From Moniliella sp. 'wahieum' (taxonomy: Eukaryota): a DNA stretch of 64,000 nt. The notes under the pieces were generated by a model. That model ran no database searches, was not told the DNA's origin, and worked only from the letters and a program-made list of their open reading frames with translations. This document shows positions 6,724 through 43,332 of the stretch, one piece after another. The DNA lies in assembly GCA_003971905.1 (NCBI GenBank), contig RSEE01000015.1:248001-312000 (forward strand). The letters are read 5' to 3'. Position numbers and translations under genes: made by a program. Numbering within the stretch: position 1 is the stretch's first letter; every line of letters begins with the position of its first letter.

Positions 6724-9106
6724 GACACCTTTCCATTTCCTCGCCTCTCGCCCCGCTGCGTCTGCTCAGGGCATGCGATTGCCCTGGGAGGATGATAGCC
6801 GCGCAGACGGACTTCCTAGCTCTGCCGCTTACCTTTGATGGCCTCAGACCTCAGATCTCATGCATATGCTCACACTCTCATGGCTTCCTATGCCCTTGTC
6901 TGGCGTCGTTCGGCCGCAGTGCCGTCTTCGCTCCCCTCTGCATGGCCATGATGTTCTTCTGTCTGGCGTACCAGCCAGACAGGCCAATACTTCTCCGCTC
7001 TCCGTTTTTGCCGTCGTGACTTTTATCGATACCATGTCTTCCTTCGCACGGACCGAGTGCACATACGGCGCTTGCGGGAGAAGTCACGGCATGGTGTGCT
7101 GTGTCTGGGTAGCGGGAACTTACTGGTTATTTTGGTTATATAGGCTCTTTAAGGTGTAAAAGGACGAATGGGTAATGGCTAATGCCCCACGGAGCCTCAT
7201 GGCAACAAACGTCTCTGCATCCAGCGTCACAGCCCGGGTGAGTGGCTCTCTCCTTTTGCTGGACAGACTGGGTGGTGCTGTAGCCAGGCTGCGTAGACGA
7301 GCTTTCTTTGAAGGCCGCAGGGGGTGGGGGGGGGTCATTCGTTGATCATGAACCCTCCACTGATTTTCCACCAACGCCACAACTCGTTTCCTTGGTTTTC
7401 CTCTGCACACTGCGGCCCTTGAAAACGTTCATTTGACGTTAAACGTTGACACGGTTGACCGTTCAAGTCGAACTCAACGAGTGTTGACGTTGCGTTGATA
7501 ATTGACGACGTGGACGCACCGCTCACGCTTATACAGACTGCACTGCTGTTGCGCCGTTGTGTGTGCCGCGTTTTCTCTCGCGAAAAAGTGACATTGTTTC
7601 CTTCCTCGTCCACCGATCGTTCAGCTAGCGGACGCTCATCGAGGTCGTCGAGGTGCTGATCACCATTTGATTCTGTCGGACTTTTTTTGCCATCTGCTGT
7701 AGGTATAATGTTCGACTTTTGGGAGAGAAGTTTTCGAGAAGTGAGCTGCCCCTGCGGCCCGCCCCTCCTTTTTGTACTGTTGACACCCTTTTCTTCTGCG
7801 TGTTGCTTACGCTATAGGCGGAGACATCTGCAGGCGACTGAGCGTGAACAATGAGTTACTCAAGAGTGCTGAGCGAGCTGAGCGGCTGAGCGCTGGGTGC
7901 GTGAACCAGCAGGGTTGCCTCAATGGGAGGGAGAGGACCCGTCGGCCAAGAGGGTGCCAACAGAGTATGCGTGTGCGTTCCCTTGTGCAAAACCCGCACT
8001 GCCGTTGCAAATCCTGAGGGTCTGGAGGGGCGTGTATGTAGATCCCGCCGCATCGCTCCGGACAGCCAGCGTGGAAAGGGCTGGAGTGGCAAGGGGCGCA
8101 GAACCACAGCAGCTGCTGCTGTGCGTGGGGGCACAGTGACTGTGACTGTGGCTGGCGCAGGGTGTGGACGGGGCATTGAAATTTGAAACGCCCCGTGGCG
8201 CCTTGGCCCGGCCGCTCAGCAGCTCAGCCGCTCTGGCGCTGAGGCGCTGAGGCTGCTGCGGGCATCTGATGTGGCCGGGGCAGGGGGCGGACGCTGGCAG
8301 TGTGCCCGTCTGTGGGTCTTGTGGCTTGCCCCAGTCCGCGCATCCCCAGCGGCTAGGGTTGGCTCCCCACGGCGTAACCGCGCACTGGTGGAATCACGCA
8401 TCGATCATCCTTACCCAGGCACACCGCCAGCCTGCAAAGCCCAGCGCACCTCTCTCGCCGTGCGCACCCAACCTGCACCACCCAGCACCCATCCTTCCCA
8501 CAGCTGTTTCGCCGGGGAGCCGCCTCGTTGTGCAGCCCCTTGGTCATATTCATCGCTCCCAACTCAACGTACCCAGCCCTCAATGGAAGTCTTAGGACGC
8601 TCTCTAGCTGGCGTCTCCAGGCTGCACCCTGCTGGCCCACGCAGATCGATTACTTTCAGATGATCGATGAGATCGGAGATCTGAGACCCGTCCCTACCCT
8701 GCCCTTCCAGCCTCCGAGACACGTGGTCCATGAAAAACGCTCGCGCACAGGAACCGCTTTTGCCCTAGCAAAGCAACCCGAATGGTTGCTCCGTTGATAG
8801 GAATGGGCCAGCTGCTTCTACGTACTCGTAACCTGTCCCTTTGTGATGCCGTGGCCCCTTCAAGCTTCAAGCTTCATAGCTTCACGCGCACTGGACGCCC
8901 CGCCTCGCCGCCTTTCCTCTCTCCCACCATCACACCGCTCGCGTGCTATGCTCGCCGCCCCGCACAGTCTATCGCATCCGCCGCCCCAACAGTGGTCGGC
9001 GAGCATGCACCAGTGGACCGTGGGTGGGGTGCCCTACGCCTCGCTCCCCACGGCCTTCGAGGTATCCGCTTCGGTTGAGGCGCAAGCCGAGGCCGAGGCC
9101 GACGAA

Positions 9107-12100
9107 ATGGAGCAGGAAGACTCGGACGGCCGGTCTTCCTCAGCCCGCTCGTCGGTCCTGTGGAATGACTCAGCACTGGACTTGATGGCTCCTCCACCGG
9201 CGATCCGGACGGCAGCACCCCCCCGAGCCAGAGTAGTCGGGCCTCCGTTCCCGATCCATCACCCCTTGTCTTGGACCGCCTTGCATCCCACTCCTCCCCC
9301 ACCCGCAGCCAGCCAGGAGTGCGTGAGTCGGACTCTCTTTTGCGGCACAAGACGCCGCAAGACTCTATTTCTGCTTCATCCGCCTCCCACTTTTCCGGCC
9401 TGACGACTACTGCTACAACCGAGACCTCGTCCAAGATGCCACTGTCGCAATCGCTACCCTTGGACCTGCCTCTCCACCAGCCGCAAGAGCGATCGCCGCA
9501 GCGCCATTCCTCCCATGTCGAGAGCGCAAGAGACGGTGTGGCCTGTCTCTCATCAGCCAGGAGCATCTCATGCGCTTCGAGCGGGGACACGTTTGAAACT
9601 GCCCAGCCCCTTTCTGGCCCCACCTCCCTTCGCGTCGAGGAACTTGGTACTGGAAACAACTCTGCTTCGAGAGAGGAGGGGAGCCCACTGTGTGCCGACT
9701 GCTCGCAGTGTGCCGAGCGGGAGACGGATCTGATGGGAGTGCATGTGATGGGGCAGCATGCTTGGGCCCGCGCGTCAGACCAAGACTTTCGCGACGCTTT
9801 GCAGGTCGAGGCGGAGATTGAGGCGCGGCATTTGAGTTCGTCGGGGGAGACTGCCTCTTCTTCGCGGACTCCCAAGGTGAAAATGCTTGCCGGAGGCAAA
9901 GTTGCGGTGCATCGTGTCGCGCCCACGTACGCCTTGACGTCGGAGAGACTCTCCCAGCATTGTCGAGCGGTACGTAACGTTATGGATGTCCCACGCATAT
10001 TAATACTGACCGTTTCCTTTCAGCTTGACGCCCAAGATACGAATCGGTGGGATGTGCTGGTCTTGCCACGTGGAAACGGTGCCCTCACCCCACCTCTCGC
10101 CTCTCTCTCGGGACTGGGGTCATCGACTTCAATAGAGGAAACGGAAACCCAGTCCAGCGCCACACAGATGCGAGAGCGGAATACGTTGCCACGGACGCCT
10201 GGAGATAGCACCACCTCCCACCCAATTCTTCGTTCCCCGGGATCGTCCTATTTGGCCGTTCAAGTCACGCCCGAGATGGTCCCTGCCTCACCATCTATGC
10301 CTATCCAGCCCAGCTTCTCCGATCGGTCGCTGTTGTCGGAAGAGGTGCCTCCTCCGTCCAATGGGACGTCTACTGCCGAGTCATCTTCGCATATATCGCC
10401 CATCACACCGGCGTTGGCCTGGAGTGGCTCGCAATCCACTGTTACGGACAAAGAGAGTCCCCAGCGCGGGGGCAAAGTACACGCCCGTCTTCGCTCGGAC
10501 AAAGCTATCCTGTACGAGGAAGAGAAGCCAGTGGGCAAGGTCGAATCTTCGCATGACTCTGCTTCCTCTCCCGCCCAACGTCGGAGCCCTACTGCAGCCC
10601 CAGACCACGTTCGGATCCTTGCCTCTCCGTTTGACCAATCCTCCCTTGATCGACACGGCAATGTCAATCGTCCCCCCTCCTCTCCCCTGGAGCGCAGTAA
10701 TGGGCCCACTAAATCCGATTCTCCGTTGGTACCTTTGGATCATGAAGAACTGCACCAAACTAAGGAATCAAGTATCCAATCGCATCCCCGCGACGCACCC
10801 GTACCCCCACCATTCCAGCCTGATTCCCTGCCTGATGAGGCCCAACCTTCCTCCACCTTCCCTTTGCCCCGTTGGGATCTTCCATGGATGAGGAGGTCAG
10901 GGAGGAGGATGACAATATCCTCCCTCGTCTGCCCGGCATGCCGCCGAGGGGCAGAGTGCTGCGTCCCAGTCAGTCATATTCTCGGCTGAGTACAGTGTCG
11001 GAGGTGGACTCGCGCGCCAGCACAGCAACCGAGACGCCACTCATGAAGCACCCTCGCTTGCGCCTCGTCCCTTCCTCCTCCTCCTCCCTCGCACCCTCCC
11101 GCAGCTCTACCCCACGGGAGACCTATGGGACCCAGGGGTACCCAGCGCCACCCTTGCGGTCTTTCCCTGCCTCACAGACTGCACTCCAATCCCTGCCAGC
11201 CGGACCTGTCCGCCCCTTGCGTCCCGTTCGGTCGCACGGAGAACTATACCAGAGCGCTCATAATGGACGTGGGTTGGCTTCCGCCTATGCTCCTTTGGAG
11301 CAACGACCTTACCGTTCTCCTTCGTTCACCTCTTATTCCGAGGCAGCAGGCCGCGCGAGCGTGTCTAACATTCATCCTGCTCGTGATGCTGCCGATCTCC
11401 CCGCCGGGAGAGTTGGCATGGGTCGGCCCCGAGTCTATTCGCTCTCTGACCTTTCATCGCGGGCGCCGTTCGCTTCGGCCGGGATCATGGCTCTTCCTGT
11501 GCAAGAGGAGGGGAGGAACACTCCCACTATGTCCCCTCTTCCTTTGAACCTCAGCGAAATCCGTCTCAGATCCACCCCGCAACTCTCCAGCCCCAAGCCA
11601 ACCCGGCCGGGCGTCCGTTGCGCAACGTTCCCTCTACCCCGAATTTGCCTATGGCCGCTTCGACAGGCCCCGTGGAGTGGGGTAGAAACCAAAATTGGGG
11701 TGACGAACAGGCCATGCACAACCAAAATAACCCTCTGCATCGCTCCGCTTCTACGACCGTTCATCACCCTGCCCCGTCGGTCATGCCCTCCCAGTCTAGA
11801 CCGTTGTCCATGTTCTCGTCGGTCCAGCCATTTCTCTAGCGACGTCGGCAAACCCCATGACTGGCGAAGGGGCAAGAACGGCGCAACTCCCCCATCCTAA
11901 GTGGGAAGAGACAGCCGTTTCCCCCTCTTGGGATGACCAGCGGCCTGTGTGGACAGGACGGAGACGGGCGAATACGTTGGAGCAGGGAGAGACTCCTTCC
12001 TCGTTGCAGCGATGGGATCAGATGGGCGGTGAGACTCGGCGTCCCAATGGAACTTCGCACCCTGGTCTGCGTGGGAGACAAAGCATGCTCGAGCTCCGCT

Positions 12101-13276
12101 ACGGCGACAGCGGCGAACCGGCCCCGCACGATGTGCGACAACGCTTTGGTGCCCCCGAACGGCCTGGCCCCTCACAAGACCTTTATCTGGCGCAGCGCTG
12201 CAAGCCTTGTCGGAGCACCACAAGAAGCAACCTCTCACGCCCTTGGAGCTCTCCGTCTGGGCGAGCAACTTCCTGGCTGAATACTCGTATGCCGCCGACC
12301 CTTCTGGCACCCCTCTTCCACCACCCACTTCCACTTACGCACCGCAAATCCTTGAACCTTACGAAAGAGGGCCGTATCAACCTCCTTACCACCATGGGCA
12401 GATGTATGCCCCGCCACCTCACCCCCCGCCTAAGATGGCCCTGCCAGCTGGGCCTGAGGAGAATGCTAGCCGGCACCCGGCTGCGGGTGGTTACGCTGAG
12501 TATGGCTACCCTCCTCACCTAATCTCAGACAAACACGATGCCTACGCTCCCCTCTCTTCTCGATCTCAGCCCGATACATATGCCTTTTCGGGGATGCACA
12601 TGGCCACGAATCCGATGGATCCAAGCCCGTATGGCCCTCACCATTCTGGCGTCTCCACCAGGATCCCAGCGTACCCTATTGGCTCGAGCCATGCCGAACA
12701 GGCTCCTCTCTCTCGCCTTTCCTGCTCAACGGGAGGAGGTCAGTCATTCCCGACAGTTAACCCTTCTTCGACAGTGTCAACTCCTTCCTCGGGGAAGGGG
12801 ATGGTGCCAGGTCACTCGCCTTCCGCTGTGCACTTCCAAGCCCCTCCCTAGACAAAGGGAACGGGAAATCATCAAGGTCCTTCCAAGCGCCAACCTAAGC
12901 GGAGTCTCCGCTCTTTTGCTTCGGCTGACAGACTACGCTCCCTCGCTCGTTCGGCCACCCACAGCAAGTCGCCCCCTGCCGCCGCACCACTCCCGTCTCC
13001 CCCGACTGTGACTGTGGCCGCCCCCCTCCCCGGTCCCAGGGGGTGGAGTCCCACGCCCCTCTCAGACAAGGCTATACAGGTCACCCTCACCTCTACCCGG
13101 CCCCAGGTACGACTGCCACCGCCCTCTTCCCAATCTCTCTCCGGACTTGCACCCAGTACCCTTCCCCCGGGGGTGGCACCTTCTACCCGTCAGAAAGGAT
13201 GGGTGCTACCCCAACGCTCAAACCCAAGAAAAGTTTCTTTGGCTCCTTCTTCCGCAAACGGGGCACAAAGACATGA
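9107..13276 (+). CDS. Large Ser/Pro-rich, low-complexity hypothetical protein; start uncertain, frameshifted
   Basis: Long consecutive + strand ORFs (8843, 9271, 10872, 11857, 12207, 13043) share similar composition. A canonical intron lies at 9970-10023 (GTACGT..CTGAC..CAG). The last piece ends 'LKPKKSFFGSFFRKRGTKT*'. Confidence 0.6.
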
Positions 13277-14179
13277 TCGACATGATCCATGTGCATGATC
13301 CATGATCGATTTCAGATCGAGACTCTCGGATCACTTCTCATACCCAATTTGTGCCATTCTTCCCTCTCCATCCACTCTTGACATTGCTCTTGTGCCCCCT
13401 ATCGCCCGTTCCTCCCGCTTCCTATTCTCTGCTGCCCTTTTGAGATCTGACGTGATATCCTGGTACCTCCTACCTATTCCCTTTGGTTCCCTTTTTGGTT
13501 GCCTACGCCTGCTCTCGATGCTTTGGTGTACCACTTCCGTTTTGGACGGATCTTTTGCCCACAGCACAATGCGGCCACTCTCGTTTCCCCTCTCTCCTTC
13601 CCTCGTTTCTGCTGTTGTTCCACCCCCATGTCACCCAGCCTTATACGATCGAACCTGACCCGCTTGAGGGATGCTACCTATAGTCATACACTGCATAATT
13701 CTTTTGGTTTCTTGGGGTTGTCTCCGTCTCTCTCGCCGTGAACATCCCCTGCATGAAATCCCAAAACATCTCGAAATGGTATAGGGAAGAACCGATGTGG
13801 ATGCAGCCATGAAGCTCATGAAGGGGCGTGGAAAAACAAAGGTTGTTTGAGTGAAGCGAAAAACGGAGCAGTGAGTGAAAGACAGGACACCAACCGCGCA
13901 GGAGGAAGCAAGAAGGGACAAAAGCGCGCACGTAACGCAAGCTACGACACGGATTGGCCCAGTGCCTTTGAGTCGCGGCAGCAGCCTAGTCAAGCGATTG
14001 TCGTGCATCAATGTCACCCAGGTGTCACAGCTACGGGGTAATTTACGTATGCGGGTGACATGGTAACACCGCTCATCGAGCTCATCATTACATTGGCCGA
14101 TCACCCAGTGGTATTTTCGGCGTGTGCGTCCAAGGAATCGTCGTTTTAACCACCACTGCACTGTTGCTGCTTGTCCCAA

Positions 14180-16222: not shown

Positions 16223-17567
16223 GGCCGAGGGGAGCTCCGGGGCAGGCTCAGACTCCAGCCGAGAGCAGGAGCAGGTGGCCGAACGAGGCAGCGGTGGCGC
16301 CCAGCGCAGCCAGTGCCCAGCCGACCCGCCCGACGCAGCCCAGCAACGCAAAGCGCCTGCGGACCGACGCACCATCATGCATCATGCATGCAAATCCCAC
16401 CATGCATTCACGCACCGCAGTCGTACGTAAATACAAGTAAGGCTTGCAGCTTTGGCCAATAGCAAGGATGGTCCAGCCCGGCCCAGCACACCGCACCACA
16501 CGGCGTTCGTTCAGGCCTGAGTTCAGGCAGGTGCCGCGCCTTCTCCGCCGCTTACACCTCCTCAGCTGCCACCCCCTCCGACGCTTTACAGATGGAGGCT
16601 ACCTGAAGCCCCCCTTCCTACTGCCGCACATGACCCGAGCCGCGCACACGTACATCCGTGGTGCCTCTCCCTGCCATCCTAGTTCCGACGCCTCTTCGTC
16701 TCAATCTCACCGTTGACCAGCTTATGGTTGCGCCACATCCGTCCTAAGCGCCGCCGGTTCTGCGCCATGGTCGGGGACAAGAAAAAAGTGGCGTCGCATA
16801 GCCAATGGATACCAAGGGGCTACGCCATGTGCATTCTAACCCTGCTGTGTGCCCAGGCCCCAGTGACGTCGCTTGGCGGCAAGTGGATGCCGGAATGCCT
16901 CTCGGCTGGGACCCTGTTGGGTCTAGGCATGGCATATTGCGATCGAAGGCCCAACCATTCTCCACGCTCCCTCGCGTCGCGCCCTTTTTTATGTCTGTCC
17001 GCACCTGTTCCCGGGTGTTCGGGTTGTTAACCTAGGATATGATGCGGCCGCGGGGCAGATGCTGTATCTGGTGGTCAAGGCGGGTGGTGTGGACTTGACA
17101 CTGACATTCATCCATGGAAAAGGAATAGAAAAGCATCGGTATAGAGGGGATGCCCCCGTCGATCAGTGATATGCTTAGGCCCGGGGTTGCTGCTCTTGGC
17201 ATAGGGTGTACCTGCCATCAAAAGAAGAGCCGGTGCCAAGGTCACGGTAGGCCCTATTCGCCTGGAATCCATCCTCTGCTGCATTTCCTCCACGCTTGCT
17301 CTCCAAGACGTTGTGAAGTGAGGTGGTGAAGTCATAACATTCACTGGGGATGGGGAAACTCGAGTCATCGATCATCCTATACTCACTACTCAACGAGTCA
17401 TAAATGTGTGTTAATAGACCTTAGGCCCCTTCAAGCTTCAAGCCTTAGGCCATAACGCTTGGGAGTCGATGAGTCAGACCTGTGTGTGCGTGCCCTCATG
17501 TGGCGGAGACAATACTACCCCGCATCGGTGTCCGTATAAGTGTACCCGTATATGTGTCTCGGCGACA

Positions 17568-17574
17568 TATAAAA
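17568..17574 (+). promoter_or_regulatory. Candidate TATA box (TATAAAA) upstream of the 17686 ORF
   Basis: TATAAAA lies about 115 nt upstream of the ATG and is followed by a pyrimidine-rich leader. Confidence 0.4.
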
Positions 17575-17685
17575 AATGGCACCCGAGCTCTGCACTGAGA
17601 ATCTCCGTCCCACCACCATCTTCACTCCCGCTCCTATCCCCCGCCTTCACGCCCGCACCTACTATCCCGCGCCTTCCGCCCGCGA

Positions 17686-18225
17686 ATGTCCCCACCACTG
17701 AATATGAATATGGAGATGAAACTGCCGTGCGAGGGGTACAGCCTGCGCGACATGGCCGCCGACTTTCCCGTTCCGAACCGAAACATGCTCATCCACGTTC
17801 TTAATGGCCTAGGTGAAGTGGCGGACCAATGGGAGTTTTTACTTGAGGAGAACAAGTGCAATCCCATGATCCGTCCCACTTCTTCCCAAGCGGGAGACGA
17901 GCACGACGCGATGGCCCTCCAGTTCGAGGCCAGAAAGCTCATGGGTATGCCGGATTGCCCAGGGCGAAATGGCGTGTTTCTGGACTGCTACAGCGCAGAC
18001 CACACGTGGGAGAGCGAGTTGAAGTACCTCAAGGAGCAAGACGAGGAGTTTGTCATGGGACCACTACCGGAGTTGATGCAGCACGTACACCGCACATGCG
18101 ATTGTTGGATCTACATACCAAAATCAACCCCCCCCTCGATCAAATCAGCCGAGGACGATGCAGGCAACGCAGGCGATGCTGGCGATGCTGGCGATGCTGG
18201 CGATGATGTAGTATCCAAACTCTGA
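17686..18225 (+). CDS. Orphan acidic hypothetical protein (179 aa) with a C-terminal (AGD)n repeat
   Basis: An uninterrupted ATG-to-TGA ORF with protein-like composition and an upstream TATA element. No family was recognised. Confidence 0.55.
   Translation: MSPPLNMNMEMKLPCEGYSLRDMAADFPVPNRNMLIHVLNGLGEVADQWEFLLEENKCNPMIRPTSSQAGDEHDAMALQFEARKLMGMPDCPGRNGVFLDCYSADHTWESELKYLKEQDEEFVMGPLPELMQHVHRTCDCWIYIPKSTPPSIKSAEDDAGNAGDAGDAGDAGDDVVSKL
18160..18204 (+). repeat. 9-bp coding tandem repeat, 5 copies (GCWGGCRAY)
   Basis: GCAGGCAAC GCAGGCGAT GCTGGCGAT GCTGGCGAT GCTGGCGAT. Confidence 0.9.
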
Positions 18226-19715
18226 GACGCTCTGGGATTATCACCTCAATCTTGTTGGAGGAGATATTGTGCTAGGGATCCCCTGTGGCACGGTCCTCTG
18301 TTGATCGGTGACGCTCGCCTTAGTAGCCGAGCGGAAGAGTTGCGCTCGCAGGCTGCGCACCCCCAGCTCGCTCCACCTCCCTCCTCTCCCCATTCCAGTC
18401 ACCTTCCCTGCAGACGTTGCTGGATGGCTTGTGCCTAACCACTTTGCCTTCACACCTTATCTGAAGGTGCGCCTCTTCTTCCTTTCTCGACCTGTTTCAC
18501 AATGAGACGTTGCTCGAAGACGTGTGTGAAGATCCGATAGCGAGTGATTGCAGTCGGCGGATGTATCGCACAGACTGACTGTGCTTCCTCCGAGTGCTGG
18601 GGGTTATAGCTTTTTAGATAGAAGATGCAAAAGGGCGCCGCACCAATGGGGGGTTGTGTACTAAGAAAGGGGCAGAGTGGAGCAGCGCCATATCTTCGTT
18701 CAAAGCCTCAGGCTGGCCTCAGGCCTGACCTCAGGCCTCAGGGGCCTTAAGGCGGCCTGAGCGCTTGAGCGAGAGACGGAAATGAGTACTGGGTTACTGA
18801 ATACGGAGTGTTCCGTTCAGGTGACCGGTGACATGTGCTGCATGATATTGATCGATGATCTGATGATCCTCCGCCTATTGCTCTCAGCGGAACTAATGCG
18901 GCGGAAACCGCCCATGAGTGGAGGCAGGGGTGTTGGAGCATACCGGCACATGGCCAGTCTTGCGAAATCTAATCAATAACACTCGCACACTGCCTTGTTC
19001 CAATGTGCAGCGGGCAGGGTTGCAAGCGCCAGGAGGCTATATAAGGACCCGGTTGGGGGGCATCTCTGGTGTTTTCCCCCAACTCTTCTGGCCTTCTGGC
19101 TTAGATCAAGTGTAGTATCTGTTCTTAACAGTTTGACAACTGTTACGCTGGGCACTGCCCAGCTGTACTTGTCATTCCACTCTTTGCGTCTTCGGCTTCC
19201 ATCGCTTGTGCTTGCACACGAGGTCGCCACGAGTGCCGCCTCCCTTACACACTGGTCGCTGGCGCTCATCTCCCCAATCTTTTCCTTCACACCATGCTCG
19301 TCTGGGCTGGTCGATGCGATGCAACGAAAATTGGATCAAATGCCTCTCATGCTTTTGAGTATTTTGGACGTCAGTGAGGATATCGGACTTAGCTTGGAGG
19401 TCGACGTGGGGGTTGCGCACGTACACATACCGAGGCGCTGTCGTTGGGAACCTCGTATGTCGTTCTCGTAGCCTTGGGCTTTCGTCCTCAAGGCCTGAAC
19501 TCGTTCCATCCCCAACCTCAACGCCCAGTTCAACGTTCAACACGCTCAACGCACAAATCCCCCAGTGCATCTACATCTTTCGCTCGTACAGTTCAAGGTT
19601 CGACGTTCAGCTGTGGTGTTTCCTCCGCCAGACTAGGCCAATCTTCATCGCATGGATTACATCTTGAGATGGGGATGATAGATGTGCATGTGGGGTGGCG
19701 ATGATTTGCGACGGG

Positions 19716-23506: not shown

Positions 23507-24009
23507 ACCCGAACAGATGAGGGTGAGGGGCGGAGGAGGAAAAGGAGGGAGGAAAGGGGAGGATGGGGAGGAGGTGGTGGAGGAGGTGGCCCTGCCTCCA
23601 GGATCCACACCTGCGCTCTTGCGCCTGCCGCCCCCGCACCCTGCGCTCTTCCAGCGGAGCATTCCGCCCGCCATCCCGCGCGGGCATCCTGGGATATCAC
23701 ATGCACACATCACATGTGGTGCAATTAAAGCTAATATTGAACGAACCCAAGCCTGTTCCGACCCAGCTTTGCAAGAGAGGGACCGAGGAAGGCACGTGCC
23801 AGCGGTGACTAGGTGACTTGCGACCGGTGAGTGCTGGTGATTAATGATTTCCGCTTGATTTGCAAATGTTCAATGTTCATGCATCACGTGCATCACGCAT
23901 CATGAATCATTCCACCGCACCACTTACGCGTTGGGATGGCTGGTGCAAACTCTCGCCATCTCTCCATACCACTGCCCTCCACCTGCTTGCCCATCCACCA
24001 ACGTGGGCC

Positions 24010-25162: not shown

Positions 25163-25723
25163 GGACGGACGGAAGAGTTTCGTCCTCCACTGGCCCCCTT
25201 TCCAAAGGCCTAGTTGCTCCAGCCATCATGTCATTGTCGTGGACTCTTGTCTTATTCCATTTTTGTGTTCCATTCCATTGTTGTGTTTCCTTTCTCGTGC
25301 TCTCTTATTTGTCCTCTGGATACTGTGTGCCTGCTCATGTTTTCATGCTTTTTTCACCTCGAGCTTGTTTCTGTGCGCATTCATATTTATACCCTTCAAG
25401 TCACGATGGTTGCCGAGATGGTTATATGGTTGGTTTCCTTCACGCCTTGATTGCCCCCATCACGTGCATAACGCGTATAATGCAGCAGAGATTGGCCTGA
25501 AGCTTGAAGCCTGAAGGGCAGATGGAGGATCATGCACTAAAATGACTGTTGTGTGTAACGGGGGATTAAGTCCATTAATGATTAAAGACTTTTTTCTTGC
25601 CCATCGAAGTCATGACTCGTACTCACGGAGGACACTTGCGTGACGTGAGGCAGTCGCGAGTGTGGGCCTTACCGGATTAGCTTGGTTACAAAATTGATCG
25701 GATGGATGAAAGACAAAAAGTAG

Positions 25724-26052: not shown

Positions 26053-26466
26053 ATGGCTCTGTCCCGTAGCATCTACAATGTGCTCTTCAAGCGCAACCCC
26101 GTCTTGTGCGTCCTCGATTCTGTCTGGCTTGCTGACTGGATGTACTGGAGGCGTCGCTAACTCGTTCTGCCCAGTGTGAGCGCCTGCTTCTTTGGTGGCT
26201 TTGCCTTCATGGTAGGCTTCGACCAGGTCACTACGGCCTGGTGGGACAAGCACAACTACCCCGTACGTGGAACTTCCTCCATGAGTACCGACTTGGGGTT
26301 CCGGGCAGTGCTGCCGCCCAACTCCGGCATGGGTGTGGCCCCCTGTCTCTCTCCTATGCTTGTGGCTGCGATGACTGACATGATCTTTGTTCCCATCGGA
26401 CAGAAGCAGTGGAAGGACCTGCGGCAGAAGTACATTACTTCGGACAAGGCTGAAGACGACGAGTAA
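26053..26466 (+). CDS. QCR9: Cytochrome b-c1 complex subunit 9 (3 exons)
   Basis: Removing introns 26106-26174 and 26263-26403 gives the intact protein MALSRSIYNVLFKRNPVFVSACFFGGFAFMVGFDQVTTAWWDKHNYPKQWKDLRQKYITSDKAEDDE*. Confidence 0.93.
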
Positions 26467-30187: not shown

Positions 30188-30239
30188 ACAATCTGAATTT
30201 CTGTTTTGATCCCATCGCGTATCGATGAACGCAAAGAAC

Positions 30240-31922: not shown

Positions 31923-33219
31923 GGTGGACAGCAACGGGCATGGAAGCCACGGTTCTCCCAAGCCACCGCAGGGCCAGCACCGATGGAGTCGATGCCGATG
32001 CATCTGATCCTCCCTGTCTCTGTCTGTCTGACATTTGAAATCTACGACGCCAGAAGCAGGAATGAAATGTGAAATCGTGCATTCAACGAGGACCATGTTT
32101 TGGCAGCTGGTCTATAGAAGTCACTATTTCACCAGCGTCAGCCTGCCTGAGCTCAGGCTGAGCCCTATGGGCACGTGCAAGCAGCCGTTTAACGTTTAAC
32201 GTTTAACGTAGATCAATCCAAGATAAACTGGTCATTTGCATCCCACCATGTCGAACGCCAAACGACCAGGGGGAGTCGAGCAATGACCACATTAATGACC
32301 ATATCCCCACATTGCCACACATTGCGACAATCATAGGCAAATCCCTCTCAACGTAACTGACAGTCTCAACAGAGATGGCTACGGGCAGAGTGCACCACGG
32401 TGCTGTAACAGTCGCTCAACTCGGGCTCCGAGCTTGAGGCTAGCCATGCCGTAGCCGGAGATGGGAGGTCTGCTGCTGATATGTAGCCAAGTGGCGACCA
32501 GAAGCCCTGGGGCGATCTGCTGTGAAGCTTGCAGAGACCAACAGGGGGTGTGCGCTTTTGATATTGACGTTTGTCCCTGAGGCTCAGGCCCGAGGGTTCC
32601 TGTAGCATGCTGCAGATTACTCTGCTAATATACACCGGCGCCATGCTGGTACCGGCCCAACCCAGCGGGGGGAATGGTGCTGCAGGCACCGTGCACGCAG
32701 CCCAACTGTGGTTTGGGCGACAGAGGTGATCTAGTGAGCAATAAGTGTGTGGGATCGAGTCGGCACATATCCCGCTGGCAGGCTATACGGCTGCTGCTGC
32801 GGCCTGCAGCGACGGGTCCCGGTAAATTTTGGTACACTTGCACTGAAGTTCTGCTCGCCGAACGACAAGAGCCATAGTGTGCATAAGGGCTGTGATACGA
32901 GCAAGTGTCCGTGCCGTGCCTTTCCGAGTCGGGGCATGGCCGGCATTAACCTCCTCCATCTCTCCCCGCGACCCCCCGGGTTCGCATGTGAGAGTTTGTG
33001 CCCCGTCCTGCCCCTCTGCCGAGACAACGGCTCTGACGACGCCAGCAACCACCAAAACGCCTCCGTCGCTCTCTTCATCTCTCCACATATTCAGTCCTCG
33101 AACCAGCTCCTTTCCTCCTTACCCTCTCCTCATCCACATTGGCCATCTCCCTGTCCCCGCTAACTCTCCCTACGCCCTTCAACTTGTGCATATTCCAGTC
33201 TTCGCTTCATCACTAAATT

Positions 33220-34751: not shown

Positions 34752-36436
34752 AGATGTTGTTGTCCTGAACCAATTTTTCCGGGCAAGTGCCTCCCGGCGA
34801 TATTTTCGTTACCTCCTAACGCGCTCACCTCATCCTATAGTAGTATTCCTCATCGGGGTGCGATGATTGGATATCTCTTCCTTTCTTTATGGGAGACGTT
34901 TGTTCTTGTTTTCGTTCCGTCTGTGGTCGCACACACTGGACCTTTTTCGTTTTCACATGCTTTTTCTGTCTTTGTTTCTGTGTTACCCACTTTGGTCACC
35001 CTTTTTCCTTCGACCATAGTTTCTCCCTGGTGCCCTTTGCACATCTCCTTTACCAGCTTCACCATTGTGCAATGTCCCAAGACTGTACGTGCTGACTGTT
35101 GATGGGCTTTTATCATATCTAAATCGTATCCTATTGTACATGGCGCGTAATCGTAATGGTCCGCAGTCTCTGTCTGTCCAACGTCTGTTGATCAATTTAG
35201 TGCATGCTGGACTGTGTATGGGGGAGCTTTTTATGCGAATTTTATCGTTACACGGGCCCTCCGTACGCACTGCGCTTGCGTGGCATTGCGGTGGGTTACC
35301 CGGTACAACGAGAGGAGCCATCTCTGGTCGCGCTGAATCGTGGCGATGTGGCTGTTGTCATCACCACATAATGCTCTTCGGGCTACCTATAGTGTGGTCA
35401 TGCATCATGTGGGCCATCGTGCTTGGTCGGGGTCTTTAGTATATAGGAAAGGTCACTGTGATATATGCCGCTATAGTATAGTATAACCGGTAACCAGTAA
35501 TACAGTGTCATGCTCTCGTGGAAGATGCACTTACAGGGGACCGCCCCCTCCGGATAATTGATGACACTGCTGTTTCCCTTCCTTCACTCGTTGTCTTGTG
35601 AATCGCCTCTCTTCGATTAGATGTTTTCACCCTGCCTTCTACCGTGCTCATTACTACTATTTTTTACAGTTTTTCTGTTGCTCCTTGTGTTTTGCATCGC
35701 CAAGCGTGTGCGGTGGCATAATATAATAGGCCATCGGCCTGTGTTCTCATTCGTTCTGATAACAACGTTGATAGAGATCGTAGGGAGACGCAAGAGTATT
35801 ATCCACGTTATCACGTTTAAATATACAGTCGGACTGGCCGTACTGGACCCGTACCGGCGTGGTGGCTATGCGCGGAGTAGGATCCTAGAGGCTTGTTGTG
35901 CCACGCCCCACACGTACTAGCCGCGGACTAACCGGACTAAGTAAGTACTAACCCGCTATAGTAATTACGGCACTGCCACCGAGGGCTTAGCCTAAGCGCT
36001 GAGCGGGGGCTTAGCGGCTCGGCGTTCCCGGAGGAATCTGTGGGGTCTGTCAGCGACTGCTTCCCAGCCCCAGGGCTCAGCCAGGGGCCCCGCTTGAATC
36101 CCACACAAGCCCCACCAAGATGTCGGAAGAGGTTGTCGGAAGCGGCGGCACCATATGTAGTTTGAAATTTGACGACGCCCTATATAGTGAGAGTAGTACT
36201 GAGATCGATGAGACCAGTACTGAGTTACTGAGTAATACACGCTAAGCATACTGAGACTCATTTCTGAGCGAGTGGATCTAGTCGATCTAAGGGTGCATTT
36301 GGGCCATCTGCCGTACTCAGCGGCAGGTTCTGAAGGATGTAAGCCACCGGATAATCCGACGATCTCCGACGGGAAGTTGCAACCATGAGTGTACGATCAT
36401 ACAGATTAATTGAGTGTACTGATTGGTGTGGTGATC

Positions 36437-36571
36437 GGTGACCGGTAACCGGTAACCGGTAACCGATAACCGGTGAGGCTGAGGGCTGAGGCGCTGAGGG
36501 TGAGTCACTAGTCACTAGTCACTAGTCAGTACTCAGTGAGGCCTGAGATCGATGATCGATGATCGATGATC
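36437..36571. repeat. Compound array of 7-bp interrupted-palindrome tandem repeats
   Basis: GGTGACC, (GGTAACC)x3, GATAACC, (GCTGAGG)x3, (AGTCACT)x3, AGTCAGT, ACTCAGT and (GATGATC)x3, read directly from the sequence. Confidence 0.9.
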
Positions 36572-37674
36572 CAGGGACACGGACTAGCTCCGGCCCACCC
36601 GGTGACGGTGCCCCCCCCTGACCGAACGCTCTGCCTGGCTCTGCCCGCCATTACCTTTGTGTGTGAAGAAGGATTGTGGCGGGGAAGGCCGGGGACCCTG
36701 GGCATGGGGACAGGGGATGGTCGAAGAGTACGTACTGAGTTCTGCCGAGCACTCCAGCCAAAAAAGCACAGCACGCCAGGGTCGGAGGCCAACCAGTATA
36801 TTATGCGGTCGTGAATAATGTACTTTTGTGTGGGCATATGAGAGCAAGTAGGGGCCCTCCCGCCGTACCTAGGCTGACTGGTTGTTCGTATTTCGACTGT
36901 TCCGGCCTTGGTCTTAGGCCTTTTAGGCCGCAGTAACTCCCAGACACTATGGCCCCTTGCTCGTTACTCAGCGCCAGGGTTCTTCCCCAAGAGGCTGAGC
37001 GCTCAGTGAGCGCGCGTGCTCAGATATCGATCATGGATCACAGAGGAGCCCATCATGCACATGCATCATACATCAAGCTTCAAGCAACGCCTCATCAAGA
37101 TCAAGTCGTTCTCAAAAGAGATATATCTTTGTGCAGCTGTCCTCTTTCCACCATTTCTTCCGTACGTCTCTCACTCTGGGGAGAACAGCATTGCTGGGTG
37201 TTACCTGCGTTGACTCTACTGCTACCTACCTCCGGTACACCCGACATTGCTACTGTGTTCGCGGGCGTTTTCACACACCGGACACGAAAAAAAGAGAGCA
37301 AAAAGAAAAGGAAAAAAAGCACACAGCTGTTGCATCTCGTCGTTCGCCCATCACTCGACCCTCAGGCCTCACCCCCACTGCATCTGTTTCTTCCTACTTC
37401 CGATCTCTAAATTGCACGGCCATTGGACGTGTGGCTGACACCATCCTTGCCCATTACTACAACTGTCTGCTGTTTTCCCGAGAAAGCCAGCCCGCACTGC
37501 CACCACGCTCTCATTTGTTTTTTCCCGAGCTCTTCTCTCTCTGCCTTCCATCGCCTCTCAAAAAGACTGGAGCTTTCTCCGACACTCCTTTATCATCACC
37601 TCCATCCTTCTCAGTTTACACCCCCTCCCACCAATTTCTGTTATCTCCCTCATTCTTTTTTCTTGCTTACGCCG

Positions 37675-40600
37675 ATGCCCACACGTTTGACTGCTCATGA
37701 GATGCACCATCTGGGCTCCCCCCATGGTGCTGTGCGCTCCCAACGGGGCGTCACTCTCATGCCACCGTCACGTCCGCTTCGGTCAGCGCGGTCGCGCCTA
37801 GCCGCACGAACGCTTCATACATCGATATTTCCCAGGCTTCTGGGACGTCGGAGCGCAGATCCACTGCTCAGCCTTTGCACCCATGTCAGCCTGCCGCAGG
37901 TGTCATGCTCCCAACGACCGTCAACGACAACGCTGCATCATTATCATCGACCTTTTCTTCTTCGTCCTATGACAAAACGCCGTCCCGACGCCCATATGTG
38001 CAGTTTGGCTCCTATGTTCTTCTTCACACCCTTGGTGAAGGCCAGTTTGGTAAGGTCAAGCTTGGTGTTCGTATCCCTCATGGAGGTGAGGTCGCTGTCA
38101 AGCTCATACATCGCACGGATTCCTCCAACGAGGCCAAGTGGAGTAGGGTGACGAAAGAGACGGACTTGCTTAAAAACTCCAACATCCCAACATTGTTGGG
38201 CTTTTGAGGTGATCCAAAGTGAACGGTACATGGGCATCGTGCTCGAATACGCCTCTGGGGGCGAGTTGTTCGATTACATTCTTTCCCAACACTACCTCCG
38301 TGAGCCGGAAGCGCGCCGCATTTTTGCTCAGCTCGTGTCGGCGGTGTGGTACATGCATACCAAGGGCGTTGTCCACCGTGATCTCAAGTTGGAGAACGTG
38401 CTCCTTGATCGACACCGCAACATTCTTGTTACCGACTTTGGCTTTGCCGGCTTGCTGGCCAAGGGCAGATTTATGAACACCTCCTGTGGCTCACCTTGCT
38501 ATGCTGCGCCGGAGCTGGTCGTTCATGATCAGGCGTATGACGCACCCACTGGTAGATGTATGGTCCTGCGGCGTTATCTTGTGCGTATTTGCATATGTCT
38601 TCTGCCGTTTTCCCAAAGCCCGACTGACAAAATGTCTTTTCAGTATGCGATGCTCTCGGGTTATTTGCCTTTTGATGACGACCCCACGAATCCTGATGGA
38701 TCTAACATCCACCAGCTGTACAAGTACATTATGCGCACACCTCTCTCATTCCCGGATCATTGCCCGCAGAACCTCGTGTCTTCTGGTATCAATGCTCACG
38801 CCAGATCCGCCGAAGCGATTGACCGTAAACCAGATCATGAGCCACTCTTGGCTTCACCGTTACGAGGATTTATTCAAATTCACCGTCGACCAGCTCGAAC
38901 AAGCAGCCCTGGCCCCAGCAAACTCGTCGTCAGACTTTCTCCCGTGCTCACAGCCCCACGGTTTCGCACTTGCTATCGCCTATCAAGACACTTCGGCGAC
39001 CAAAAACTCTCAACCAGACGCCCCACCTCTACTCTCTACGATATTGTCGTTTACCGCACCATCGCCCAACACGCTGGAGAGACCGTTTCCGCATCGGGTG
39101 TTGGACACGGTTCATCTGAGCTGGACGATCGAGAAGTGACAATCCCCGACTTCTCTTCGGTACCTCGCTCCGATCAAAATCGGCACACGCTGCCAAACCT
39201 GGACTCTCCCGTAGCTCCACACCACGTTACTCTCTGCTACTCCTTCTGTCACCGAAGGAAACGTATCTTCTGTGATCCCTGATGGGGCCGCACGAGTAGT
39301 GTTGTCCCCGTCTGGGCTACTGCGCTCATCACCGCACCTGATACCACCTCAGCCAGGTCCCCCACCGCTTTTGCCTCCACCGCAGCAACCTATTTCTCCG
39401 CTTCCCAGTCGATGGCGACGAAGCATCCGCGGCATCACCGTCTTTCTTCCGCTCCGTCCAGTACAGGCAGATAGTAACTGCATTACCCCGCCGTCTAACT
39501 CGGTCGATCATGCTACTCATCAAAACCGAGCCTCACCCCACCGTCGCAGCATCGCACCAGGTGCCGAAGGTCGAAGATGCGTTGGAACACAATTCAGCCC
39601 TGTTGTTCCTGTCCACAGTTGGCTTCGGGATACCGTCTGCTCCTCCCACCGCTGGTCTCTGCCCTTCTTGACCGAAGTACTTGTCCCACTGGAAGCAAGC
39701 CCCTACCCCAGTCCCCTCCTCCCGATCCGAGTTCCGTTACATCTCCACCCCCCGCCTCCAATTCTGAACGAGAGACGACGTCGCGAACTCCAATTCCAGC
39801 TCGGACTGGATCATGGAGTCCATCAAAGGGGCACAAGGGGCGGGAAGGGATGATTAACTATGCCCATGTTTCTCCGGAGTTCGCCCGTACAGGAGGCGTC
39901 CCCCCCGCTCAACAGTCCAACATCGCTCCATCATCATGAACAGAGTCCAGACCGCATCCTTGTTTCTCGTATTTCGAACAACCCCACAACTCACGATACT
40001 TTGGTTGCACCGGAGCGAAAGGACAGGGGGAAATCGGTAACGATTGTGGCTGCTTCGGACAATCCTTGGTCCGATTCCCAACGGTTCGACGCCGTATCAC
40101 GGCCCAACCTATCTTTCACTCTGCCGTCGGTCTTGACCGAGAGAGCAAAGACACAGTCCCTCCCGGTTTCGGCCACGGTAGCGCCACTCTTCCCGCCATG
40201 GGGGGTCGTCCGCGCAGCAGATCGAACCTCGATCGCATCAAGGCACTCTTTTCCCCCCTCTTGCATCATGAGCATCATCGCCCTTCCAAATCGGGCCACC
40301 CCAGGAGCCAGTCCATCCTATTCTCCCATCGTTACCACTGGTTCTGACTTGCTCTCACGTTCAACTCGGGTCTTGCTGCTTCACCGGCGCACAATCTGAC
40401 CTCAAGGCTCGCACCTGGACCTCACTGGTCAAGGGCAAAGTAACCGGAAGCAAACAAAACAGTACGAAAACCAGCATCTTGCATTCGACGGCCGCTTTCT
40501 CTACTCGGACCGACCTTCCTCAGTCACCCACTCAGGGCCCTTCCAAGTCTACTCGCACCTCCACCCGTGGCTGGCTCAAGCATCTGGTTCATCACCATGA

Positions 40601-41037
40601 AGACGAAGGAACAATCGCGATTCTCTCGCCCCCCATGGGCCTAGCATTGTCACCCGGCCTCGTGCTAGTACGTGGCGGCTACCTTCGCTCGGTCGGGGCA
40701 TCATCACTTCCCTCCCGCACACGCATCTTTGTTCGCCGTATCACCCTTCTCGTGGCTCCTCCCCGGCTCCGTCGAGCTCGATCACGACACGCAATCAGAC
40801 AGTGTCGACCGAAGAGACACGACCCAGTTCCATGGAGAGCAAGCTACGTGCGCACGAAGGGAAGCTCAAAGAGGAGCATTGTGTTCGTTGCCACTACCGG
40901 AGCTGGTAGAGCGCGTGGCACGTGCTTTGGATGAGATGGGGCCGAGGTGCACTGTCCTGAACCGTATGTGTGGGCGTGTCGATGGCGCGACCCATACGAT
41001 CGCATCCAGTTTCGGCATTAGTCGTGTTTGCCCTTGA
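37675..41037 (+). CDS. Kin4/Ppk1-like (AMPK-related CAMKL) Ser/Thr kinase with a long low-complexity tail; ends uncertain, frameshifted
   Basis: Kinase motifs are 'TLGEGQFGKVKLG', 'VAVK', 'IVLEYASGGELFDYIL', 'HRDLKLENVLLD', 'DFG' and 'TSCGSPCYAAPELVV'. The Kin4-family signature is 'GYLPFDDDPTNPDGSNIHQLYKYI'. Confidence 0.88.
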
Positions 41038-41660
41038 AGTGTTCCGCGTTACCAAATTCCTGGCTGATGAGTGTGGATATGAAGCACTTGGCTGGCGACA
41101 AGGACGCGTTTGCCTCTGCACAACAAATTTTCTACGTTCGGTGCGATTTGGCCTCTCCTCCGCCATGATTGTTGTTGCGATCTTTTGCTTGCTTGGCAGC
41201 TTGTTAATAGCTTGCTTTTGCCTTGATGATTCGATGCTTGCGGCTATATTTCCCTTGATTTCCCACTACGACCGGTTCACCTCTTTCGGTCATTTTGTAC
41301 CATCCTCTTTTCCTGTACCCAGACGGGCTTCTGCGGCGCTTCTGCTATGTGGCCCATCCACTCGGACGCCTCATTCCCGGTTTCCACCGACCTCTAGTAC
41401 CCCATTCTCATCCGCACCTCTCCCAAGCCCCCCTCATCTCTCTGTACTTCCCCTGCGCATACATTTAGGCCGAACTTGCTTCATCTTCCGCTTAGTATAT
41501 ACCTCCTGTTCCTCCCTTCCTTCCTACTGGTGTCTGTCGTTCCACTTATTTTTCAACTGCCATATGCAATAGTGCATGATGTTTCTCTTTGACCTGTTCG
41601 ACTGGTGCAGTAGAGCGTGTATAATAGCATCGAAAAGCGAATCCCATCAGTTTGGACAGC

Positions 41661-41675
41661 TGTGTGTGTGTGTGT
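41661..41675. repeat. (TG)7 microsatellite
   Basis: Read directly from the sequence. Confidence 0.8.
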
Positions 41676-41956
41676 CTCACCACTCTCGCTTCGCAAGCGT
41701 TCTCGATGACCATCTTGAGTCGAACCACCTCTTCAGCTTGGAATTGATCTAGAATGGGCTCTTCCCACCCTTTTCGAATCGAAAAACACGCCCCACATGC
41801 CGTATATCATCCCAACTACATATCCATCCTCATCGATGCATCACACAATAATGGCGCTCCCCCACATCCATCGAATCACCTTATTCGCAACAATATTAAT
41901 GCGTTCGGTTATAGGCGAGGCAGAGCAGCATTTGACTTGCGTCTTGTGATGTATCG

Positions 41957-42978
41957 TCAAGCCGCCTTCTGGTGCTGCTCATTGCCCGCTATGCGACCCA
42001 GCTGCATTTTACGCGAAATAATCGCATCACGCCAAGACCAAGGCAAAATGTGAGCAACCAAACCAAAGAGCTCATGGGACCGACGAAAAGTAGGCCCCAT
42101 TGTTGAACAAGCGCATGATGCTCCAGGGGCTCAGGCGACCGCCCAACGCTCCGACTTCTCCATATGGATACGCAACGCCTTGGCGAATGCCGCCGAGGGC
42201 ATCGGTGGGTGTGGGTGACTGGCTGAACATGGCGCGGGCTTGCACCAGATTCCAAACGTGGGCAAAGCGGCTGCCTTGGCTTGAGCTCACGGACGCCGAG
42301 CCATTGACTCCGAACTGCGACTGGATCTTTCCCGGCGCAACAACTTGAACACGGATGCCAAATGGCGCCAGTTCCATCCGCAGCGTGTCAGAGTATGAGT
42401 GGATGGCAGCTGCAATCGAGGGGAGGGAGAGATGGGTGAGCATAAGATGGTTCTGTGGAGAAGTGAGCCATTGGGGAGAGATAGGACACCTTTGGAAGAG
42501 TTGTAGGCGGAACTCCATGGCATTGGCTGAGCCCCGACGGTAGATCCAATGTTGACAATCAACCCCGCCTTCGAACGGTTTGCCCTAGCGTAATCGATCA
42601 TGGGCCCAGCCACAGCTTGGGTGACCCGAATCACGCCAAAGACGTTCACATCGTAGGTGGCCTGGAAGTTTTCAAGACTCACTTCGGCCGCTGGCCCCCA
42701 GCACATTCACACCTGCATTGTTGATCAGATGTCAATGCGGCCGGCCTGTTGCAATACTTGTTTGACCGCCGTTTGCACGCTTTCGTCCGACGTCACGTCC
42801 AGTGCCAACTTGGTGATGCCATCCGGCAGCCCGTCCATCTTGGACACTGAGCGCGTGGAGGCGAAGACCCAGTAATTTGCCAGTACTATGCAGCCTGGGC
42901 CACGGCGTAGCCCATGCCGCCAGCGGAGCACCCGGTAATGAGGACAACACGCTTGTCTGCTGTGGGGGTGGTAGACAT
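41957..42978 (-). CDS. Short-chain dehydrogenase/reductase, AYR1-like; spliced, frameshifted
   Basis: The start reads 'MSTTPTADKRVVLITG'. Further motifs are 'LALDVTSDESV', 'GRIDI..NNAG', 'YDVNVFG', 'IVNIGS', the catalytic 'YNSSK' and 'YSDTLRMELAPFGIRVQVVAPG'. Confidence 0.88.
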
Positions 42979-43332
42979 GGTGCGTTGGTGGGGCGCAAGA
43001 GACCGGTTGAATGCGGAGACAACACAGACGTGCGGGGCTTAGATATTATGTCAGCGAGTAGTATCGATCTGCCCGCCTCAATCTCAGGCCTCGATGATCG
43101 ATGATCTGCCCTGGCTCGAGAAGGCAATTAGCAGGCAACAGCTCCCGTCCATCCGCCTGGTCGACCTGATAAGCCTTGTCCACTTGACCAGTCCAATGGG
43201 GGCCTGGAAGCTTAATGGCAACGTCTGGCGGCCATCTCGGTCGCTCGCCTATTGCTGCCCGCTCACATGCCCACAATCTGCCCTACTCAGGTGCCTACCC
43301 CTCGTGTGCGAGGACATGGGCCACGAGAAGCT

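Follow-up and report, generated by a model that had tools for sequence, protein, structure and literature searches.

The intergenic DNA of a 64,000-nucleotide stretch of the Moniliella sp. 'wahieum' genome (contig RSEE01000015.1, positions 248,001 to 312,000; hereafter the window, with positions counted from its first letter) carries numerous short structures built on a 7-bp unit with a T-N-A centre, which we propose, on balance, to be excision footprints of a hairpin-forming cut-and-paste element, itself not yet seen, that would insert at nnTSAnn targets (S being C or G) with 7-bp duplications. An earlier reading made from the sequence alone had pointed to palindromic micro-arrays of this kind. 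The feature is strong, real and specific to this genome or its lineage; the unit that is duplicated measures 7 bp, and the perfect palindromic arrays are a special case, that of an already symmetric target, of a more general form in which a direct repeat encloses a filler copied in inverted orientation from the neighbouring flank.

Comparison with Markov simulations of orders 1, 3 and 5 (n = 200 each) reveals 21 exact period-7 tandem duplications in the window, against simulated means of 3.7-4.4 and a maximum of 10. A palindromic rotation exists for 10 of the 21 (0.38-0.40 expected) and all 10 are TNA-centred (0.03-0.12 expected, maximum 2), in agreement with the enrichment proposed by the sequence-only reading; four further arrays have a T-N-A phase with the mismatch confined to the outermost arm pair, and the remaining seven, which have no TNA phase, are at chance level. 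Among 204 TNA-centred palindromic 7-mers, pairs with the same arms number 15 at distance 7, four at distance 8 and five at distance 14, with no pair at distance 7 for the equivalent words centred on ANT (192 sites), CNG (303) or GNC (328). Because single-copy TNA-centred palindromic 7-mers are hardly enriched (204 versus 161-171) and ANNNNT hexamers are not (189 versus 177.5), the excess is one of duplication, not of words. Nor are even-length palindromic units enriched (1 of 47 arrays at period 6 and 0 of 5 at period 8).

The signature is nearly missing from DNA of other origin. An outside control consisted of 80 mostly fungal contigs that encode UPF1 relatives (68-87% identity; 1,068,093 bp in total). 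Its period-7 duplications number 106; 11 have a palindromic unit, which is the chance share, and a single one is centred on TNA. The closest related DNA in that set, a 3.7-kb locus with a UPF1 of 87% amino acid identity, has no such structure.

A search for TNA followed by a 4-bp palindrome and a second TNA, an alternative parse that the sequence-only reading had mentioned and that proves to be the core form, returned 49 cores in the window, with middle bases that are identical in 37, complementary in five and otherwise different in seven (P = 6e-13). Since they are identical in 37 of 49, the middle base is copied directly, and the cores are not merely perfect palindromes. The 37 same-N cores collapse to 31 independent period-7 runs, in which the periodicity beyond the 10-nt core reaches 0 or 2 nt per side, rarely 1. 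In 25 of the 31 runs a flank equals the filler, on both sides in eight and on one side in 17 (10 right, 7 left); by our own base-frequency estimate, roughly two of the six runs matched on neither side are due to chance. The unmatched sides have a 0-nt extension in 14 of 17 cases, where random flank predicts a fraction of 0.8 and decay of an array 0.5 (P = 0.006). They thus behave as random flank and not as decayed array, so that most of the structures are not tandem repeats: full tandem repeats make up only 8 of the 31 runs, and 17 runs are 12-mers of the form TNAcd-d'c'-TNAcd (lower-case letters denote any base, primes its complement), a 5-bp direct repeat with a 2-nt inverted filler from one flank. 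The palindromic 7-mer, previously taken as the primary unit, does not have that standing, most events being one-sided 12-mers at non-palindromic targets.

An unbiased scan of both strands for any 5-mer followed by 2 nt that reverse-complement its end and by the same 5-mer gave 73 hits, 45 of which start with T-N-A, against 0.22 in simulated DNA (maximum 2 in 100). The next class, with nine hits, is a second phase of GATGATC arrays, and no other class exceeds nine; the same scan of the 1.07-Mb control found three, i.e. 0.18 per 64 kb. For pairs of TNA with the same N, only the 4-nt spacer is enriched (84 versus 27.4 +/- 4.2), adjacent TNATNA (spacer 0) being at the expected level (43 versus 42.7). 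A single geometric rule holds for no fewer than 12 distinct 4-bp fillers and 10 types of unit. One-mismatch variants located away from perfect copies are also in excess (46 versus 7.0 +/- 2.9), which implies that old and young copies coexist and that the process has been long-running.

Reconstruction of the target gives a centre of C or G in 26 of the 31 runs (T-S-A), with positions +/-2 and +/-3 nearly without preference. Of the 6-bp palindromes found in this arrangement, 53 begin with A and 1-2 with any one of the other bases. A T precedes 45 of the 53, so that the T at -1 and the A at +1 both matter. Several observations identify the duplicated unit as 7 bp. The palindromic 7-mer phase is admissible in all 10 palindromic arrays (joint phase probability 3e-4), the two arrays of exactly 14 nt (at 18729 and 19528) share the phase of the palindromic 7-mer, and in structures of the form TNAcd-d'c'xx-TNAcd the two bases xx equal the left flank in 4 of 8 cases (chance 1/16; P = 9e-4). 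Direct repeats of nnTNAnn occur with spacer 0 at 19 positions (0.11 in Markov simulations; 0.3 per 64 kb in the controls), with a 1-nt spacer at seven and with a 2-nt spacer at six, and the spacer is consistent with P nucleotides, i.e. with a palindromic extension of the neighbouring flank, in five of the seven and four of the six (P = 0.013 for the latter), which makes 9 of 13 fillers of 1-2 nt in all. Intact 7-mers enclose a 2-nt inverted filler at 13272, 13808 and 14071 and once on the minus strand, and at 18717-18735 two copies of a 7-mer flank a 5-nt filler, the reverse complement of the last five bases of the first copy.

With respect to genes, none of the 31 runs lies within the coding reference, which comprises 20 open reading frame (ORF) segments with a Pfam match and covers 21.9% of the window (P = 5e-4), and the statement of the sequence-only reading that the arrays lie outside genes is upheld in this sense. 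Stop-to-stop ORFs of at least 150 aa span 78% of the GC-rich window, so location 'inside an ORF' carries little weight; a gene map based on codon usage gave too weak a signal and was not used. The structures cluster in promoter-like gaps, as with about nine of them within 36161-36571.

A single scheme, which is our own construction on published chemistry, could yield every class of structure. A 7-bp staggered cut and insertion would duplicate the target abTNAcd, and on excision each flank end would be sealed as a hairpin exactly at the border of flank and element. Nicking of the hairpins by a host nuclease, 2 nt from the tip, would leave 4-nt self-complementary 3' overhangs, cdd'c' on the left flank and b'a'ab on the right. 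Joining of the top strands would then produce TNAcd-d'c'-TNAcd and joining of the bottom strands abTNA-b'a'-abTNA, each with a gain of 7 bp; together the two joins would form a heteroduplex, of which replication would fix one product. That such a heteroduplex could be resolved either way fits the occurrence of both right-matched and left-matched runs (10 and 7, respectively). If the arms of the target are palindromic, the overhangs would anneal to give a perfect tandem copy of the 7-mer, and a nick at the tip, or 1-2 nt off it on one side only, would give two 7-mers separated by 0-2 inverted nucleotides. Every event would make another palindromic 7-mer, and arrays of 3 to 6 copies would grow through repeated hits or through slippage at a later time.

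Two aspects of the grammar point to hairpins. The arms co-vary yet may take any base, which two protein subunits that read half-sites could not bring about and which indicates copying of strand from strand. Further, in the one-sided forms the inverted dinucleotide abuts the flank that it complements. P nucleotides are defined in just this way, and they betray a covalently closed hairpin end that was opened off-centre. The grammar, its statistics and the near-absence of the signature in the controls are observations; the hairpin chemistry, the nick at 2 nt and the existence of the element are our inference. The sequence-only reading had offered insertion/excision footprints, a 7-nt stagger and hairpin-mediated repair as separate options, and the data are fitted by the three combined; fill-in of a 7-nt overhang by itself was considered and set aside.

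Precedents exist for the individual steps. Artemis prefers to nick hairpins at a point 2 nt 3' of the tip, which yields a 3' overhang of 4 nt. Its fungal relative is Pso2, and the scars of Ac/Ds in Candida, budding yeast and plants combine short deletions with palindromic P-nucleotide insertions, as described in the accessible text of PMC5873905. Palindromic target motifs at staggered cuts are recognised by DNA transposons, according to the accessible part of PMC2577343.

Several results weigh against excision footprints of such an element. Within the 64-kb window there is no element flanked by a duplication of this type: a search for 7-bp or 5-bp duplications with inverted ends gave two hits for 7 bp, which merely pair two GATGATC arrays, and one unrelated hit for 5 bp. 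No transposase Pfam family was detected in 247 ORFs (49 + 72 of at least 150 aa, and 126 of the 226 of 90-149 aa). The density is very high, the 64 kb containing some 31 perfect runs and some 39 decayed copies besides about 10 repeats of 7-mers with spacers, although by a rough calculation of our own a low-copy element with some 1e-5 transpositions per copy per generation could reach the observed density within a few percent of neutral divergence. The by-products that the scheme would allow are not in excess, neither that with both overhangs kept (TNA + 8 nt + TNA; one imperfect case) nor that with both lost (TNATNA, see above). Palindromic targets are over-represented (8 of 31 versus 1/16), a surplus that calls for an extra assumption: either self-complementary overhangs are joined more easily, or such targets are preferred. 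The filler is not P-like in 4 of the 13 repeats with 1-2 nt between the 7-mers and in a single 4-nt case. Finally, the classical hAT-type scar form is seen in only 2 of the 25 bTNAc repeats at spacing 7, 17 of which have a palindromic filler centred between bases, in keeping with the 17 one-sided and eight two-sided runs, which are even-centred.

Some of these points would sit better with an endogenous nuclease that carries no cargo and whose breaks at nnTSAnn sites of open intergenic DNA would have the same 7-bp stagger and hairpin ends, although we regard this as an unlikely origin. It predicts the same scar grammar as an element does, and sequence alone does not separate the two; the very high density of scars, the lack of an element in the window and the concentration of scars in promoter-like gaps such as 36161-36571 would follow readily. 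A 7-mer duplication, however, requires a copy of the target at both ends, which a staggered cut with insertion explains naturally, whereas a nuclease that only cuts would need 7-nt overhangs to be both filled in and hairpinned. We know of no precedent for overhangs of that length being treated in both ways. Yeast does have domesticated hAT transposases that make hairpin-capped breaks (PMC4763223), and a domesticated hairpin-forming transposase such as Kat1 of Kluyveromyces would be an example of such a nuclease. A related proposal, to which we give distinctly little credence, is that the scars stem from a domesticated transposase, kept by the host, that repeatedly breaks nnTSAnn sites in promoters and so acts as a built-in mutator of this lineage; if true, 7-bp palindromic arrays would be written into regulatory DNA and would give rise to regulatory variation.

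Replication slippage, favoured by hairpin formation of palindromic 7-mers and leading to birth and growth in the manner of microsatellites, is improbable as the source of the structures, even if some growth past two copies is likely under any origin. Arrays of 3 to 6 copies with variant end units exist, and arrays of palindromic units are self-complementary, as slippage would have it. Yet slippage gives no reason for the limitation of the enrichment to T-N-A, when ANT, CNG and GNC yield no pairs at distance 7, nor for the absence of enrichment of even-length palindromic units; 17 of the 31 runs fall short of two units and contain an inverted 2-nt filler, which slippage could not produce, and the signature is almost missing from 1.07 Mb of other, mostly fungal DNA. 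The preference of the sequence-only reading for a dedicated, sequence-specific process over ordinary slippage is borne out by the enrichment of TNA centres only and by the inverted fillers.

It is very unlikely that the structures are selected cis-regulatory arrays, i.e. tandem sites for dimeric transcription factors. Their intergenic position, the recurrence of words such as CTTCAAG (three loci), GATGATC (four to five) and those of the GCTGAG type (four), and the presence of motif clusters with variable spacing (TCAAC around 19510-19560 and TTGACG at 7430-7510) would suit such a role, but the at least 12 fillers and 10 unit types share geometry and not sequence, in the one-sided forms one arm tracks the local flank, and a 7-bp spacing puts successive sites on different faces of the helix.

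PIF/Harbinger and IS5-type elements have targets with a T-N-A centre, as the present structures do, and a PIF/Harbinger footprint with a 3-bp TNA duplication and two terminal bases from each element end between the copies would have the observed core, as expected from inverted element ends. Nevertheless, we consider an origin of this type, which the sequence-only reading had put forward, scarcely credible. In 25 of 31 runs the filler repeats the local flank of one side or both, and not element ends; the approximately 12 fillers would demand about as many element families; TNATNA is not enriched; and intact 7-mers are directly repeated, with a repeated segment of 5-7 bp. The PIF/Harbinger duplication, by comparison, is 3 bp (accessible text of PMC12730594) and the one here 7 bp. 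An assembly or sequencing artefact is highly improbable, given that none of the 31 structures lies in Pfam-supported coding segments and that a strict grammar together with decayed copies is unexpected of read or polishing errors.

Comparison with established systems helps to place excision footprints of the proposed kind. The canonical Tc1/mariner footprint, TA-CWG-TA, is similar in that it spans 7 bases, is quasi-palindromic around a free middle base and arises from symmetric ends, but it consists of element-end bases and has one fixed sequence, whereas the sequence here tracks the local target. P elements produce long 3' overhangs and no flank hairpins. Galileo, with 7-bp duplications of consensus GTANTAC, shares the length of the duplication and a palindromic consensus around an unpaired middle base, but has an A-N-T centre and animal hosts, in contrast to the T-S-A centre with nearly free arms seen here (accessible text of PMC4168063). 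The hairpin-type footprints of hAT, MULE and Transib elements and of V(D)J recombination are alike in having the target duplication on both sides of the empty site, flank-templated P nucleotides, small losses on the other side and joining by host end-joining, as the accessible parts of PMC5499845 and PMC5873905 describe them; the outcome here is unusually stereotyped in comparison, with a gain of 7 bp and a 2-nt inverted filler.

The position of the palindrome also differs. In Ac-type scars its centre is the complement of the base adjoining the element; here the centre falls between two bases, as would follow from a nick made precisely at the border. A hAT relative, if one is responsible, would nick at the border as RAG and Transib do. 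The classical hAT-type scar was set aside as the general form because its odd-centred arrangement is so rare among the bTNAc repeats. The two instances, in which both junction-adjacent bases are complemented, are at 25574-25587 and 53629-53642 and are too few to interpret.

With respect to the duplication, the hAT superfamily makes 8 bp but hAT7 makes 7 bp, which matches the unit here. DNA transposons with 7-bp duplications were described from basidiomycetes in 2025, namely hAT7 in rusts and Kyakuja (KDZ) in Agaricomycotina (accessible text of PMC12730594). In that account hAT7 is alike in combining a 7-bp duplication, an occurrence in Basidiomycota and membership of a hairpin-forming superfamily; Kyakuja, which has CA..TG ends and no terminal inverted repeats, is comparable here by duplication length only. 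The accessible text of PMC12730594 does not mention Ustilaginomycotina for either.

The kind of scar is known, and its target, its stereotyped form and its density are without a description in the full-text literature searched; that search, in which subscription journals lay largely outside the coverage, returned no account of fungal 7-bp scars or arrays centred on TNA. If excision footprints are the right reading, one uncharacterised cut-and-paste system would have written about one scar per kb into the intergenic DNA of a basidiomycete and would be a major contributor both of small insertions and of promoter sequence that is newly palindromic and tandem. The footprints alone would define the nnTSAnn target, the 7-bp stagger and the hairpin-opening mode of an unseen element, and would provide a precise search image both for the element and for its signature in other genomes. 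They would also imply that short 'microsatellites' of palindromic units can arise without slippage, and would offer a natural read-out of hairpin opening in a fungus, apparently 2 nt from the tip.

The individual structures are collected in the table, with three of the genes. All 11 loci named by the sequence-only reading are present, but some are looser in spacing or exactness than it had described: three that it listed under a 7-nt period have spacers of 2 and 1 nt (GCTGAGC x3 at 7868-7891), of 1 nt (GCTCAGC x2 at 8214-8228) and of 4, 5 and 0 nt (CCTCAGG x4 at 18706-18742), and CYTGAAG x3 at 25496 is present in imperfect form.

Positions of TNA-centred structures and selected genes in the window. 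P-like or P-consistent, filler that extends the neighbouring flank palindromically (P1, 1 nt; P2, 2 nt).
Position	Strand	Structure or gene	Remark
6842..6860		CCTCAGA x2, then core TCA-GATC-TCA	exact; outer arms non-palindromic
7868..7892		GCTGAGC GA GCTGAGC G GCTGAGC	first filler not P-like, second P1-consistent
8176..8188		TGA-AATT-TGA-AA	one-sided run
8214..8253		GCTCAGC A GCTCAGC; GCTGAGG C GCTGAGG (8238-8252)	first filler not P-like; second P1-consistent
8659..8670		GA-TGA-TCGA-TGA	one-sided 12-mer
8858..8876		CTTCAAG x2.7	one-sided (left matched), three TCA, then degenerate copies
13272..13307		CATGATC GA CATGATC (13272-13287); CATGATC x2 (13294-13307)	2-nt P filler; exact
13808..13823		CATGAAG CT CATGAAG	7-mer + P2 + 7-mer
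14071..14086		GCTCATC GA GCTCATC	7-mer + P2 + 7-mer
16373..16389		CATCATG x2.4	exact two-sided tandem array
17365..17376		TCA-TCGA-TCA-TC	one-sided 12-mer
17419..17449		CCTTAGG / CTTCAAG x2.1 / CCTTAGG	nested cluster; exact run 17429-17443
18706..18742		CCTCAGG, four copies	18717-18735, 7-mer + inverted filler CCTGA + 7-mer; 18729-18742, exact x2, in phase with palindromic unit; spacer CTGG (18713-18716) not accounted for
18820..18868		GG-TGA-CCGG-TGA (18820-18832); TGA-TCGA-TGA-TC (18849-18860); GATGATC T GATGATC (18854-18868)	filler of the last not P-like
19528..19541		GTTCAAC x2.0	exact; phase uniquely that of the palindromic 7-mer
23804..23897		GGTGACT A GGTGACT; TGA-TTAA-TGA-TT; GTTCAAT x2 (23865-23879); core TCA-TGCA-TCA; CATCACG TG CATCACG (23882-23897)	cluster in divergent gap; in order P1, one-sided, exact, core, P2
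25496..25516		CCTGAAG CTTGAAG CCTGAAG	exact one-sided run 25498-25510
26161-26463	+	QCR9 subunit gene	
32186..32209		GTTTAAC x3.4	two-sided array; divergent-promoter-like gap
35398..35409		TCA-TGCA-TCA-TG	one-sided 12-mer
35484..35495		TAA-CCGG-TAA-CC	one-sided 12-mer
36161..36233		TT-TGA-AATT-TGA (36161-36172); ACTGAGT T ACTGAGT (36219-36233)	one-sided; P1
36437..36476		GGTGACC, GGTAACC x3, GATAACC	end units of the array vary; exact run 36441-36465
36477..36502		GCTGAGG-type 7-mer duplication (36477-36491); GCTGAGG C GCTGAGG (36485-36499)	exact, outer arms non-palindromic; 1-nt P-consistent filler
36503..36528		AGTCACT x3.7	one-sided (left flank matched, right unmatched), four TCA
36526..36547		TCA-GTAC-TCA-GT; TGA-GGCC-TGA	one-sided; core only
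36547..36571		GATGATC x3.6	two-sided array
37073..37085		TCA-AGCT-TCA-AGC	one-sided run
37360..37371		CC-TCA-GGCC-TCA	one-sided 12-mer
43091..43106		GATGATC x2.3	two-sided array
47964-48410	-	FKBP-type isomerase gene	
52613..52625		AG-TAA-CTAG-TAA-C	one-sided run
52800..52811		TCA-GATC-TCA-GA	one-sided 12-mer
56266-57732	-	CCR4-like gene	LRR + endonuclease/exonuclease/phosphatase domain

Besides the tabulated structures, a perfect 12-bp palindrome, GCTGAGCTCAGC, at 1485-1496 contains two overlapping TNA-centred 7-mers. The homotypic clusters of the TTGACG/CGTTGA type at 7430-7510 and 19510-19560 adjoin 7-bp scars but are distinct from them and resemble binding sites.

The window as a whole is gene-dense eukaryotic DNA with short introns and a G+C content of 52-63%. 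Its genes include those for an Alg9-like mannosyltransferase, Snf7, a secretory lipase, a protein kinase, a Zn2Cys6 factor and UPF1. The UPF1 fragment (296 aa) has 86-88% identity to proteins of Thecaphora, Tilletia and Exobasidium, with further database records at 97%, 92% and 89%; the best named protein match of the lipase has at most 37% identity. On these grounds we regard the source as a basidiomycete that belongs to the Ustilaginomycotina or stands near them and that lacks a close named relative among these matches.

Other repeats and over-represented words were noted in the window. A C homopolymer of 18 nt occupies 6706-6723. A 9-bp tandem repeat, CGATGCTGG x5.6 at 18156-18205, forms the terminal part of an unannotated 208-aa ORF (17599-18222), is in frame with it and may be a coding repeat. 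An imperfect 20-bp repeat at 35923-35970, in the kinase gene's long upstream gap, is rich in words resembling intron signals (GTAAGT, TACTAAC, CTAAC) and may belong to an intron of an untranslated leader. The 8-mer AGGGTTAG, which contains the telomere-type TTAGGG, has six copies (4118, 16836, 48300, 59547, 59832 and 62688) against 0.95 expected, a count reached in none of 100 shuffles, and may be a dispersed regulatory motif. The words ATCGATGA/TCATCGAT are strongly over-represented window-wide (15 versus 2.5; e.g. at 8659-8680, 17462-17475 and 36190-36205), and several of their copies contain CGATGAG, which we take to be the core of the PAC promoter motif of yeast ribosome biogenesis genes.

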